Positions 5,895-48,156 of a DNA stretch of 64,000 nt are shown in pieces. Position 1 is the first letter of the stretch. Every line of letters starts with the position of its first letter. Below the pieces are notes generated by a model that searched no databases, was not told where the DNA came from, and was given only the letters and a program-made list of their open reading frames with translations. The DNA lies in assembly GCF_030013595.1 (NCBI RefSeq), contig NZ_CP122768.1. The stretch is one strand, 5' to 3'. The DNA is from Escherichia coli (GTDB lineage Bacteria > Pseudomonadota > Gammaproteobacteria > Enterobacterales > Enterobacteriaceae). The translations under genes and the position numbers were made by a program.

Positions 5895-8800
5895 TTACGG
5901 TCTGACAATCAGCAAATCTTCAGCCGCGCCGGTCGCCCGCCATTGGGGAACATACATTGATTCCACCATCGGTTGCGGTACCTGATACGTTCCCGGCGTC
6001 ACCGCCCGCGCCAGATACACCAGCGTTACCGGTTGGTATTCATCAACGGCAACCGCCGCCACAAAGCGATCATCACGGAACTCAATGTGCTTAATGCTCG
6101 CCTGCTGCATCTGGTTCAGTAAGTTTTGCACTTCGCCACCACTTTGCTCCAGGCTGGCGCTACCGTTCGCCAGATTCTGGTTTTCCAGTTCCAGACCCGC
6201 AGGCAGCAGATCCACGACTAACGCATCCGGCACGCTGTTACTGGCTTTTACCTGCAACCAGACCAGCACCAGATCGCCGCTACGTAACGAGTCCAGCGAT
6301 TTACTCTTACCATCAGTACCAAGAATATGACGCTCGATTTGCAGCACATTGTTCGCCGGTAAAGGTGCGGATTGCGGATAACCGCTGGCATCCACACGCA
6401 GCCATAACGGCTGATCGCCACTGTTGGTCGCCTGCAAGGTGGCAAGTTGATCGCTATTCAGATTGCTGTTTAGCGTTTTCTCGCCTGTCAGCGGCTCAGC
6501 TGAGAAAGAGGTTTGCGCCTGCCATTTACCCGGTAAATCCTGAATCGTACGGGCAGCCAGGAACAACGCGTTGCTTTCCTGGGTCGATAGCCAGCGTTCA
6601 CCAAATGCCTGCTGCGAAAGCGTGTTCAGCAAAGTGTTCTGCTCATCGGGTAGCAGTTTATTTTCTTCCAGCAAGGAGAGCATCAACGCGTTGTCGCGCA
6701 GTGGACTACCGTAATCACCCAGCCATATCCGCTCATCACTATTACGCGGCGTTTTCAGCGCCAACGCAATTGCTTCTTCACCACGCGTCGCATCACCCAT
6801 GGTTTTCAGCGCAACGCCAAGTTGCAGCAGCGGTAAACCAGAAGCGGCATCTGCACGATGCTCCCAGATTTCACGCAGCGCACCCAGTGGAGCTTTTTGC
6901 TGACGGGCCAGCACCAGCGCAGCGTAAGACTGTACGGCGAATTTACTGGCTTTGAGATTATCCGCGTACGGGATCGACATCATGCCCGGATCTTGTAAAT
7001 AGCGCAGCAGACGCTCATTTCCCCGGTTAATGACGTCTGTCGGCACGCTGTACCCCTGCTCACCTGCGCGGACCAGGAAATCCATCACGTAAGCCGTCAG
7101 CCAGTACTCTTCGTCACCGTTTTTATCCCACAGCGCAAAGCCGCCGTTATCACGTTGCATTTGCAGCAAACGGGAAACGCCGATATCGACCGATGCACGG
7201 CGTTTCTCATCACTGTCGCCTTTGATGCCCAACGCCTGCAGTTGGGCTGCGTTGGTATAAAGTGACGGGAACAGGCCGCTGGCGGTTTGCTCAAGACACC
7301 CGTACGGATACGCTTTTAACTCTTTGATATAACGTGCGATGTTCAGCGGTGGTTTGCCGCTCAACAACAATTGCCCTTCCAGCGTAACAGGTGAGAAGTT
7401 TTGCAATCCATCCGCCGGAATCGCCCATGTCTCACCAGGCTGTAACGCCGTACCGTAATTAACCGTTTGTGCCGGGAACGCCGGACGGACGCCGATTTTC
7501 CACTGCTTATGCTGATCGGCAACGGTTTCACCCGGTAACGCTAACCCGCTAATGGTGGCCTGAATTTCTCCATCGCCATAACCCGGCAATGCTCGCACCG
7601 GGATAAACAGCGTAGTACGCACACCTGGCGCTAATTCAACGGCTGCGGGTGAAACGCTGACCAGTTCAAGCAAACCACTGGCGGTCAGGGCAACGTTCAG
7701 TTTTTGCGGTTTATCGGTAAGATTAGTGATATCCAGCGTCAGACGCGAGGTATCGCCACTCGCCATAAAGCGCGGCATGTTCAGTTCAGCAATCACAGGT
7801 GCGGCAACTATCACTTTGCTTTCGTTGCTACCGAAGTCATCTACCGTCCAGGCTTGCGCCATGACGCGCAATTCACCGTTAAAATCGCCAATCGGCAGTG
7901 TAACCGAGCCTTCGCCCTGTTCGTTGAGCGTTACCGGCAGCGCCTGCTGCGCGACAATATTGACGTGATTGACCGGCGGTTTACCACCACGTTTCAGCTC
8001 ATCACCATCGCCACCAAAACGCAGAGCTGCCAGACGCCCCTGACCTTCAATGACCTGACCGTAAATATCGTAAATGTCTGCACCATAGCGTTTCTGACCA
8101 AAGAACGCCTGCCACGGATCGGGGGTAACGTAATCAGTAATATTCAGCACACCGCTATCAACGGCAGACACCAGCACATTCACCTGTTTTGGCATCTCAC
8201 CATTTTTATTGCTGGCTTTAATTTTCACGGTTAATGGCTGATTGGGGCGCATTTTGGTGGGGGTTTCCAGCGCCAGATCGAGACGACGGTTTTCATCGCC
8301 AAGCGGCAGATGCAACACCCCAACTGCGCGTTTTGGCGTCGCAGAGCGAGATTTATCGCCAGGACGTACCACCAGCGTACTTAAATACAAATCATGACGA
8401 TTCCAGGTTTTATCGACCGGAATCGTCAGATCCAGCCCTTGAGCCGGAACATCAATCTCTTGCCACCACAGCGGCCCTTCACTGGACTCGACCATCGCAT
8501 AACCTTTACCCGCCGTTGGCGCGGCAATATGCAACTTAATGGTATCACCAGGGCGATAACTGGCTTTATCCAGTTTCAGCGTGACACGGTCGGGTCGCAC
8601 GGCACCGCTCCCGTCGCTGTTGTCCTGCCAGCTATAGCCAGCCCAGAAACGCACACTACTGACCGCTTCATTCGGCGCTTTGACTTCCAGACGATAAGCG
8701 CCCCACTCTACCGGGAAACTGACTTTACCGGTTTCATCTGCCTGAAGATCCAGAGTTTGTTCATTTTCAATCAGATCTTTTTGATCAAACTGTGACTGCC

Positions 8801-11908: not shown

Positions 11909-11924
11909 GCTTTTTACAGGCAAT

Positions 11925-11953
11925 AAAAAACCGCCGAATTTGGCGGTTTTTTA
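11925..11953 (+). terminator. rho-independent terminator downstream of sseA
   Basis: Hairpin ccgccgaa/ttTggcgg followed by T-tract (aaaaaaccgccgaatttggcggttttttatt). Confidence 0.7.
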
Positions 11954-12099
11954 TTGCTGGTCTGGTTCGCGGCCTTTCCAGCAGGTTGACTTGTGTTGTC
12001 GGAGCAACGCAGGTGCTTCACAGCAAAGCAATACTCGCCAGTAACTCTCTTTTTGTCAAGCGAAAGAGAGTAATCATTGTTTATTTAGCGTATTATCGA

Positions 12100-12405
12100 C
12101 ACCGGCCCTTTCCGCCGTCTCGCAAACGGGCGCTGGCTTAAGGAAAGGATGTTCCATGGCCGTAAATGCAGGTGTTTCACAGCGCTTGCTATCGCGGCAA
12201 TATCGCCAGTGGTGCTGTCGTGATGCGGTCTTCGCATGGACCGCACAATGAAGATACGGTGCTTTTGTATCGTACTTATTGTTTCTGGTGCGCTGTTAAG
12301 CGAGGTAAATAATAACCGGAGTCTCTCCGGTAACAATTTACTGGTGGTTAACAAACTTCAGAGCAGCAAGTAAGCCCGAATGCCGCCCTTTGGGGCGGCA
12401 TATTT
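12100..12405 (+). ncRNA. ryfA: ryfA-type small RNA / timP mRNA, copy 1 (5' end not determined)
   Basis: Location between sseA and sseB where RyfA maps in E. coli; ends at hairpin gccgccc-tttg-gggcggc plus atatttt; contains small hydrophobic ORF. Confidence 0.45.
12236..12373 (+). CDS. timP: small hydrophobic protein, TimP-like type I toxin candidate (MDRTMKIRCFCIVLIVSGALLSEVNNNRSLSGNNLLVVNKLQSSK; may start at second Met)
   Basis: Own translation; ORF below the 60-aa track cutoff; hydrophobic TM-like core IRCFCIVLIVSGALL; position inside ryfA. Confidence 0.5.
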   Translation: MDRTMKIRCFCIVLIVSGALLSEVNNNRSLSGNNLLVVNKLQSSK

Positions 12406-12488
12406 TAGATTATCCGATGCTGTTTAAAGTCACGCAAAAAACCACCCCAGCGACGTTCATAGAATGGCGCAATATGTTCGGTAATAAA
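12395..12488 (-). pseudogene. duplicated 3'-terminal fragment of sseB (~30 codons) carried in repeat unit A
   Basis: Sequence ttagattatccgatgctgtttaaagtcacgcaaaaaaccaccccagcgacgttcatagaatggcgcaatatgttcggtaataaa is identical to the 3' end of sseB at 13083-13166. Confidence 0.8.
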
Positions 12489-12779
12489 ATAACCTAGCTT
12501 ATTAGTCCGAATTCAGACAAATATAAACAATTTTCGCTTAATATTAAAAATACTAACCAATAAAAGATATTACTTGAACATGTAATTTCACTTTCTTTAA
12601 ACAACAAAAAACCGCCAAAATCAGGCGGTTATTTGTTGCTGGTCTGGTTCGCGGCCTTTCCAGCAGATTGTATTACCGTAGTAATGCAAGCGCGTCTCAG
12701 CGGACACAATACTCGCCAGTAACTCTCTTTTTGTCAAGTAAAAGAGAGTTATTATTGTTCTGTTAGTGTATTATCCACT

Positions 12780-13085
12780 GCGGACCTTTCCGCCGTCTCG
12801 CAAGCGGGCGCTGGCTTAAGGAAAGGATGTTCCGCGACCGTTAGAGCAAGCGCGTCTCAGCGCTTGCTATCGCGGCAATATCGCCAGTGGTGCTGTCGTG
12901 ATGCGGTCTTCGCATGGACCGCACAATGAAGATACGGTGCTTTTGTATCGTACTTATTGTTTCTGGTGCGCTGTTAAGCGAGGTAAATAATAACCGGAGT
13001 CTCTCCGGTAACAATTTACTGGTGGTTAACAAACTTCAGAGCAGCAAGTAAGCCCGAATGCCGCCCTTTGGGGCGGCATATTTTA
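12780..13085 (+). ncRNA. ryfA: ryfA-type small RNA / timP mRNA, copy 2 (5' end not determined)
   Basis: Duplicate of copy 1; terminator hairpin 13060-13077 and T-tract overlap the sseB stop codon. Confidence 0.45.
12914..13051 (+). CDS. timP: small hydrophobic protein, TimP-like type I toxin candidate, copy 2 (identical 45-aa translation)
   Basis: Own translation of atggaccgcacaatgaagatacggtgcttttgtatcgta...agcagcaagtaa. Confidence 0.5.
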   Translation: MDRTMKIRCFCIVLIVSGALLSEVNNNRSLSGNNLLVVNKLQSSK

Positions 13086-47205: not shown

Positions 47206-48156
47206 TTATAGTTTGGCGGCAAGAAGATCTTCCAGTTTGCGTTGATCAACGGCGAACAGACGAATGCCTTCAGACAGTTTTTCTACCGCCATCGCATCCT
47301 GATTGTGCTCCCAACGGAACTCCGCTTCGCTCATGGGAGCTGGGCGTGGGAACGTCTGAGAAGGTGGGATTAATTTACGTACCACTGGCGAAACTTTTTC
47401 CTGTAGCTCCTTCAGCAAATTCGGTGCGATAGTCAGTCGGTCGCAGCCGGTTAAGGCGAGGATTTGTTCGGTGCGACGGAAGCTCGCGCCCATCACAATG
47501 GTTTCATAGTGGTGTTGCTTATAGTAGTCGTAGATATTGCGTACTGATTTAACGCCCGGATCTTCTTCCACCACATACGGGTCCATCGGCTTGCGTGCCT
47601 GATACCAGTCATAAATACGCCCGACAAACGGCGAAATCAGAAAAACGCCTGCTTCTGCACAGGCCCGCGCCTGTGCAAAAGAAAACAGCAGCGTCAGGTT
47701 GCAGTTAATACCTTCTTTTTCCAGCTCTTCTGCCGCGCGAATTCCTTCCCAGGTTGAAGCCAGCTTGATCAAAATACGTGATTTCTCAACGCCTTGTTGC
47801 TGATACAAGTCCACCAGATGGCGCGCCTTCTCAATACTCTTTTCTTTATCAAAAGAGAGGCGTGCATCAACTTCTGTTGACACGCGACCGGGTACGATTT
47901 TGAGAATTTCAGCACCGAAATTGACCGCCAGTTTGTCACACGCTGCGACCACCTGTTGTTCCTGGGTCTTGCCATTTTTTTTACCCCAGGCGATAGCATC
48001 GTCTATTAAATGCTCATATTGTGATAATCCGGCAGCCTTGAGTAACAGCGAAGGATTGGTGGTGGCATCCTGGGGATGATAATGGCGAATGGACTCAATA
48101 TCGCCGCTGTCTGCCACGACAGTAGTGAACTGTTTGATGCCGTCTAACTCGTTCAT
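47206..48156 (-). CDS. talA: transaldolase A
   Basis: ORF track 316 aa [23 protein letters not shown]... Confidence 0.93.

Follow-up and report, generated by a model that had tools for sequence, protein, structure and literature searches.

Results

The inverted repeat most probably belongs to the divergent timR/timP promoter region

The perfect inverted repeat upstream of timP in Escherichia coli is most probably a DNA feature of the non-transcribed, divergent timR/timP promoter region and not an RNA hairpin. By sequence criteria, the element is shown to be the untranscribed core of the antitoxin promoter: the loop corresponds to the timR −35, the left arm to the −35-proximal 9–12 bp of the timR spacer, and the right arm to the DNA 3–14 bp upstream of the timR −35, a stretch that doubles as roughly positions −41 to −30 of the timP promoter. 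The palindrome lies wholly in the 80-bp gap between the TimR and timP starts (−21 to −48 relative to the TimR1 5' end), with its dyad centre at −34.5 of timR and −46.5 of timP. As it is located outside both RNAs and around the timR −35, no RNA structure is expected from it. The palindrome pinpoints the timR (ryfB) promoter and fixes both RNA boundaries in the duplicated locus.

The locus represents the timP/timR (ryfA/ryfB) type I toxin–antitoxin module known from enterobacteria, which is tandemly duplicated here between sseA and sseB. In the window, i.e., the whole 64-kb stretch of DNA that was analyzed, Rfam family RF00126 identified two full-length ryfA RNAs (12102–12406, 311 bits; 12780–13084, 310 bits). 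It is known from Salmonella that ryfA encodes TimP, and that TimR is a divergent, adjacent, and non-overlapping sRNA, which uses its 5' end to pair with the timP 5' UTR and thereby blocks translation (Andresen 2020, PMC7667032). RNA-seq of S. dysenteriae revealed divergent, non-overlapping transcripts of ~100 nt, RyfB1 and RyfB2, upstream of each tandem ryfA (Fris 2017, PMC5333039), and RyfA was detected as a single ~300-nt band in northern blots of UPEC (PMC8205139). For STnc2070, we found no mention in the literature beyond Andresen 2020. Plus-strand positions 12006–12024 are a near-copy of 12165–12183, so that a minus-strand RNA running leftward from 12024 is complementary to the timP1 5' UTR; likewise, the TimR2 seed (12683–12701) matches the timP2 5' UTR at ~12843–12861. 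This seed–target match in both units indicates that each unit encodes the TimR that is cognate to its timP, with the two sRNAs ending at the bidirectional terminators 11920–11957 and 12610–12630, respectively. An arrangement with two timP genes is uncommon among the records examined and was found for few of the matches listed, e.g., H1 (99.2% identity) and H8; the whole 1.3-kb query was matched at an identity of at least 99% by only two genomes.

Both palindrome copies carry, on the minus strand, the sequence TTGACA–17 nt–GAGTAT, i.e., a sigma-70-type promoter. The 5' ends of the Salmonella RNAs read CTACGGTGTGCCTGCGTTGC (TimR) and GGCCCTTTCC (timP; Andresen 2020 Table S2, PMC7667032), and the homology arm of the Salmonella timR deletion oligo reads ATCATA-TTGACA-TTTGCTCCCTTAAAAGG-GAGTAT-TAATC (PMC7667032). 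This TimR 5' end served there for cloning and for T7 templates. We placed the timP and TimR 5' ends by homology to the Salmonella ends combined with promoter conservation, which yields TimR +1 positions at 12023 and 12701, ~7 nt past GAGTAT, and timP +1 positions at 12104 and 12782 (Table 1). A consensus promoter scan did not report PtimR, as GAGTAT scores only 3/6 against TATAAT. For timP, no TTGACA-like hexamer is present in the window sequence 16–18 bp from its TATTAT. A genomic SELEX peak for the RpoS–RNA polymerase holoenzyme has been assigned to the sseA > ryfA spacer at K-12 coordinate 2651536 (PMC5493296, table row 129). An annotation of the timR (ryfB) promoter is absent from the RefSeq records examined. 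The RpoS peak would presumably fall near the unit-1 timR/truncated timP promoter region, and not at ryfA itself.

Table 1. Coordinates of the palindrome copies, transcripts, and promoter elements in the window.
Feature	Position	Strand	Basis or remark
Copy 1 left arm, ACTCTCTTT	12044–12052	none	Within the 17-bp spacer of the timR1 promoter
Copy 1 loop, TTGTCAAGCG	12053–12062		Between the arms; window sequence
Copy 1 right arm, AAAGAGAGT	12063–12071	none	Just upstream of the timR1 −35; equals −41 to −33 of the timP1 promoter
Copy 2 left arm, TAACTCTCTTTT	12720–12731	none	Repeat search (I16) and folding
Copy 2 right arm, AAAAGAGAGTTA	12740–12751	none	Repeat search (I16) and folding
timR1 −35 hexamer TTGACA	12054–12059	−	Within the palindrome loop; as in Salmonella PtimR oligo EHO-1349
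timR1 −10 hexamer GAGTAT	12031–12036	−	17 bp from the −35; Salmonella hexamer identical
timR2 −35 hexamer TTGACA	12732–12737	−	Orthologue conservation
timR2 −10 hexamer GAGTAT	12709–12714	−	Orthologue conservation
TimR1 (RyfB-like) sRNA, ~100 nt	11922–12023	−	5' end by homology to Salmonella TimR +1; 3' end at the bidirectional terminator 11920–11957
TimR1 seed	12006–12024	−	Direct repeat D5 on the plus strand, 17/19 identical; both differences yield G–U pairs
TimR1 target in the timP1 5' UTR	12165–12183	+	Repeat D5; Andresen 2020 (PMC7667032)
TimR2 sRNA	12604–12701	−	Seed 12683–12701; minus-strand terminator 12630–12610
timP1 −10 hexamer TATTAT	12091–12096	+	Same hexamer directly before timP +1 in Salmonella oligo EHO-1348
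timP1 (ryfA) mRNA	12104–12406	+	5' end by homology to Salmonella +1 GGCCC; Rfam RF00126
timP1 ORF, 41 aa plus stop	12248–12373	+	Matches annotated TimP proteins, 98% identity
timP2 (ryfA) mRNA	12782–13084	+	Rfam RF00126 at 12780–13084, 310 bits
timP2 ORF	12926–13051	+	Two timP CDS annotated in a 99.2%-identical E. coli record

Sequence and rarity of the two copies

Copy 1 of the palindrome is a perfect 9-bp inverted repeat with a 10-nt loop at 12044–12071 of the window sequence. The first-pass annotation had correctly recognized both the sequence and the perfect repeat, but had assigned it to 12025–12065, i.e., with a start 19 nt too far left and an end 6 nt short of the right-arm end. The second copy that it had pointed out is indeed present at 12720–12751 and is stronger than copy 1, with perfect arms of 12 bp and a loop of 8 nt. 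The location upstream of each timP-like ORF could be confirmed as well, as the right arm of copy 1 ends 177 nt before the timP1 ATG (12248) and 33 nt before the timP mRNA 5' end. Its description of a stem preserved amid diverging neighbours applies only in part: the 9-nt core of the right arm is identical between the units and its flanks differ, but the block identical between the units is the 31-nt sequence aatactcgccagtaactctctttttgtcaag, which spans the timR core promoter in full (−10, −35, and the spacer that holds the left arm) and not the stem in particular. Furthermore, both copies are located in one 678-bp tandem duplication (D1) and are therefore not independent.

The pattern CTCTCTTT-N6–12-AAAGAGAG occurs at two places in the whole 64 kb, which are the two copies, compared to an expectation of 0, and the dyad exceeds dinucleotide shuffles of the 83-nt intergenic region (p ≤ 0.01). 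As such, perfect repeats of 9 bp or longer are no rarity: the window contains 15, vs. ~1.9 in shuffles, and many of them resemble terminator hairpins. Apart from a weak dyad-like site at 47834–47860, which lies inside an ORF of 316 aa and is probably due to chance, no further dyad sites were found in the 64-kb window.

The palindrome lies outside the mapped RNAs

Folding of copy 1 as RNA yielded −11.5 kcal/mol for the plus strand (z −3.6) and −8.8 kcal/mol for the minus strand (z −2.4); the respective values for copy 2 were −15.9 kcal/mol (z −7.5) and −13.3 kcal/mol (z −4.9). The stem would accordingly be stable on either strand if single-stranded; however, the interval is located outside the mapped RNAs. 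The first-pass annotation had considered two RNA roles, neither of which is supported. With regard to a part of the divergent antitoxin sRNA, TimR1 starts at 12023 and runs leftward, which leaves the palindrome upstream, where it holds the −35; moreover, the arms lack complementarity to the timP mRNA, with no match of ≤ 1 mismatch to the mRNAs at 12104–12406 and 12782–13084, and the real seed is 12006–12024. With regard to a structure in the timP 5' UTR, the RF00126 matches start only at 12102 and 12780, the Salmonella +1 aligns to 12104, and the ~300-nt band in UPEC agrees with the 305-nt ryfA RNA. Taken together, RNAs of ~300 nt (RyfA) and ~100 nt (RyfB) fit the mapped boundaries and leave no room for a 28–32-nt hairpin in either of them. 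We therefore consider it very improbable that the palindrome acts as an RNA hairpin, either in the timP 5' leader or in a longer TimR isoform, that controls toxin translation or antitoxin stability. The stable predicted fold, especially of copy 2, would speak for such a hairpin, as would a weak plus-strand promoter-like match at copy 2 (TTGTCA-16-TATTGT), but a start from this promoter would be downstream of the stem, and the stem shows neither covariation nor conservation beyond the Escherichia alleles A and C, where only one-sided changes occur (see below).

Both copies were also listed by a plus-strand terminator scan, and a weak intrinsic terminator or insulator could shield timP from read-through from sseA (copy 1) or from the upstream timP unit (copy 2). 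This function is even less probable, as the stem contains only three G–C pairs and lacks a true T-tract behind it (tails AATCATTGTT and ATTGTTCTGT), strong terminators are present further upstream (11920–11957 and 12380–12401/12610–12630), and the element is not conserved in orthologues. Equally hard to credit is a supercoiling-dependent cruciform, which would make the timR −35 inaccessible and render transcription of the antitoxin dependent on DNA topology. The perfect, A/T-rich arms would suit such a model, and copy 2 reaches −11.9 kcal/mol as single-stranded DNA (z −4.1); however, the arms are short (9–12 bp) around a loop of 8–10 nt, copy 1 folds only marginally as DNA (z −1.7), and the element is lineage-specific.

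The timR promoter is conserved in orthologues, whereas the arms are not

Orthologous regions were collected from a genome scan (15 usable loci), a scan of metagenomes for a motif conserved in TimR (69 loci), and look-ups of Escherichia TimP variants and E. coli records. The pattern used for the genome scan, GCGGTCNNNGCANNGACCGCAC, proved too generic, with 105 of the 120 loci being unrelated G+C-rich palindromes, and the 15 Enterobacterales loci were those that could be used. The TimP protein search reached Escherichia and Shigella only and hence yielded no Salmonella or Klebsiella loci; the Salmonella sequence was taken from published oligos and a Salmonella-like metagenome contig (L130). The resulting 33 unique promoter regions represent at least seven genera and include several species of Escherichia, Salmonella-like sequences, Citrobacter, Superficieibacter, Yersinia, Erwinia, and metagenome lineages.

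The sequence TTGAC(A/T)-17 nt-[G/C]A[N][T/A]AT was found on the minus strand in all 33 unique orthologues, with TTGAC, the −10 positions A2, A5, and T6, and the 17-nt spacing being invariant. Three Rahnella sequences, which a distance filter had placed outside this set, show the same motif and spacing. The spacer and the upstream DNA, which correspond to the arms, vary freely across the 33 orthologues. The footprint of the timR promoter thus accounts for the apparent conservation of the loop and its left neighbourhood. Conservation of this kind shows, at the level of sequence, that the palindrome DNA would serve to recruit RNA polymerase for TimR transcription. In the proposed mechanism, RNA polymerase would bind at TTGACA-17-GAGTAT and transcribe TimR, whose 5' end would then pair with the timP 5' UTR and block toxin translation.

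A significant dyad (p ≤ 0.01) was present in the Escherichia alleles A and C only. Other lineages yielded p-values between 0.03 and 1.0, and the best repeats of other genera are located elsewhere in the region; these per-lineage values are consistent with no general enrichment of inverted repeats at the timR promoters of other genera. The first-pass annotation had proposed to look for covariation and had named a stem that is neither covarying nor conserved in orthologous loci as evidence against its reading, and this is what we observed for the stem. Watson–Crick pairing at the stem-homologous columns amounted to 26.6% in the 21 sequences other than A/C, compared to 26.5% under the null (p = 0.5), and RNAalifold returned 0 consensus pairs for the orthologue alignment. 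In the full alignment, 58.9% of the cells were paired vs. 43.6% in shuffles; this excess stems from ten related A/C rows that had supplied the structure, and the covariation signal was rejected, as it vanishes once these rows are removed. Variants of the arms are one-sided in each case (L140, L136, L065, and L131): L140 carries a T>C change in the left arm, L136 two changes in the right arm, and E. whittamii and L131 are changed on one side each, and compensatory changes are missing within A/C. The diverged alleles A and C do not differ at any of the 18 core arm positions, which is compatible with constraint though not significant (0.92^18 = 0.22, given that the aligned repeat D1, arms included, diverges by 8%).

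Promoter alleles in Escherichia

Three promoter alleles were distinguished. Allele A is represented by copy 2 of the window and by unit 2 of K-12, and allele C by copy 1 of the window and unit 1 of K-12. Allele B, which is found in O157:H7, E. albertii, and cryptic clades, has no perfect dyad; its repeat is imperfect and wide (TACTCTCTTT ... AAACAGAGTA, 24-nt gap, p ~0.15), with the left arm overlapping the −10. Among 5426 complete E. coli genomes, 4713 carry the A/C-type region, at 6489 places in total and often twice per genome as in K-12, and 570 carry allele B. No annotated features were found under the A/C and allele B matches in these genomes.

Several further observations relate to promoter and unit structure. 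The −10 regions generally read GnGTATTAT for timP and GAGTAT for timR. In allele B, the −10 regions of the two divergent promoters form an inverted repeat of 9 bp, ~50 bp apart, with AATACTCTC belonging to timR and GAGAGTATT to timP (L200, O157:H7, 425–510; L193, E. albertii). Based on these sequences, the timR and timP promoters look as if they were mirror paralogues. K-12 (L199 656–1290; compare window 11956–12406 and 12638–13084) contains two timR genes and one timP. Its unit 1 consists of TimR with the allele C seed, the palindrome, the timP promoter, and 16 nt of timP, followed by a deletion. The two palindrome copies of K-12 are located at L199 746–773 and 1064–1095. The surviving timP adjoins the TimR of unit 2; its 5' UTR target is AATGCAGGTGTTTCACAGC, which pairs with the distal TimR of unit 1 (two G–U pairs) and not with the adjacent TimR (five mismatches). 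As the target fits the unit-1 TimR, it appears that control of the K-12 toxin lies with the more distant antitoxin copy.

Five separate lineages, namely E. marmotae (L190–L192), C. amalonaticus (L077), Y. aleksiciae (L113), Y. similis (L068), and a metagenome sequence (L151), lack the ~160 bp that separate the TimR seed from the timP target. The deletion joins the TimR body to timP sequence downstream of the target, and both promoters are lost. Since the target and the complement of the seed form a direct repeat on one strand, recombination between them seems to inactivate the module repeatedly.

Additional features of the duplicated locus

A 3'-terminal part of sseB, for which the E. coli record with 99.2% identity lists a partial sseB pseudogene, is located between the timP units (window 12405–12497, corresponding to L198 1106–1198), which indicates that the 678-bp duplication took in the end of sseB. 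The interunit gap is filled by a full-length match to Rfam IS128 (RF00125, 212 bits; window 12438–12648, plus strand), which overlaps with the terminator of TimR2 on the other strand. The earlier prediction of an IS128 sRNA may reflect in part TimR and its bidirectional terminator. Regarding TimR itself, no family of Rfam 15 was matched at its gathering score in this region. The 3' two-thirds of TimR1 (11922–12003, minus strand) gave a sub-threshold match to AgrB (32.7 bits compared to a gathering score of 40; E 0.0036), which serves as the antitoxin sRNA to dinQ in a type I system. Conservation of the TimR stem GCTGGTC-GGT..GCGGCCTT-CCAGC extends from Escherichia to Erwinia. Finally, a promoter-like sequence (TTGTTA-16-TATTAT) is found antisense to each timP ORF (12309–12336 and 12987–13014, minus strand), adjoining the conserved ACCGGAGAGACTCCGGT hairpin within the ORF. 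These matches could mark an antisense transcript, or be due to chance in A/T-rich coding sequence.

Discussion

The locus is already known and well studied, and the palindrome is mostly ordinary. Given its position in the DNA between the two transcription starts, the question is whether its perfect symmetry serves a purpose. We lean slightly towards the view that the symmetry is an incidental product of the local rearrangement of an older quasi-palindrome, which would affect promoter strength at most. This is favoured by the persistence of the module in lineages without the dyad (O157:H7, E. albertii allele B), by the sequence ATACTCYCTTTT at the −10, which is common to allele B and the Salmonella/Citrobacter group, and by the CTCTTTT block of A/C, which lies beside the −35 and complements the older right-arm motif AAA[G/C]AGAGT. 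Judging from the sequences, a quasi-palindrome seems to have been rearranged locally to place this block in A/C. Derivation of allele A from allele B by mere inversion of the spacer was rejected, as the reverse complement does not match; a block swap or a template switch is a candidate for the origin of allele A.

Alternatively, the dyad could be a putative operator for a dimeric transcription factor, centred as described above, which we regard as rather unlikely. The same doubt applies to its more specific form, a putative Escherichia-specific operator, at which a regulator would shut off TimR at the −35 and possibly activate the −35-less timP promoter. Perfect arms of 9–12 bp with a gap of 8–10 bp, centred on a −35, have the look of a repressor operator, and the inverted repeat does overlap a core promoter element. 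A dimer bound over the timR −35, next to a timP promoter that lacks a −35, could lower the antitoxin and perhaps raise the toxin. Furthermore, allele B retains its imperfect repeat despite a rearranged geometry. Transcriptional control of timR and timP is regarded in the field as expected but unknown (PMC11228461). An OmpR motif has been predicted somewhere in −100 to +10 of K-12 ryfA, and deletion of ompR resulted in modestly lower reporter activity in one condition (PMC12266141), which would agree with an operator if the motif overlapped the dyad. However, the half-sites are not kept wherever the module is, and the dyad is missing in allele B (570/5426, including O157:H7) and in other genera; this restriction to the A/C lineage weakens the operator reading. 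Natural variants that break one arm exist (L140 and L136), and the 64-kb window offers no second site beyond the weak coding-region match. In a comparison by eye, no convincing match to the LexA, IHF, CpxR, PhoP, or OmpR consensus was seen in the sequence. If the dyad were an operator, one factor would shift the TimR:timP ratio, which would provide a transcriptional trigger that lets TimP be made and a first handle on when E. coli lowers TimR. Strains with allele B, such as O157:H7, would then have lost or never had this input and could serve as a natural control.

With regard to known systems, perfect arms of 9–12 bp around a centre of 8–10 bp between divergent genes are reminiscent of repressor operators that overlap a −35, e.g., those of TetR-family intergenic regions. 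Unlike these, the palindrome has no adjacent regulator gene, and its half-sites are limited to one allele group. The LexA-controlled systems tisB-istR1 and dinQ-agrB resemble timP/timR in that divergent toxin and antitoxin genes share a short regulatory region; in those systems, a dyad operator sets the toxin:antitoxin ratio, and the 3' part of TimR shows the aforementioned sub-threshold match to AgrB. However, there is no LexA box (CTGT-N8-ACAG) at the palindrome, and the repressor of tisB-istR1 and dinQ-agrB acts on the toxin promoter, whereas the dyad described here lies on the antitoxin −35. Salmonella also differs from Escherichia, as its palindrome CTCCCTT-(TT)-AAGGGAG is located inside the timR spacer and abuts the −10; this repeat is not significant alone (p ~0.2; L130; oligo EHO-1349, PMC7667032 Table S2). 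A palindrome around the timR −35 is not mentioned in Andresen 2020, Fris 2017, the 2024 PNAS, 2026 NAR, 2021 PLoS Pathog, or 2026 AEM papers. [quoted passage not shown] The tandem duplication resembles that of ryfA1/ryfA2 in S. dysenteriae; unlike in Shigella, however, the two copies of the window differ in seed and target beyond the 5-nt 'variable region' reported there.
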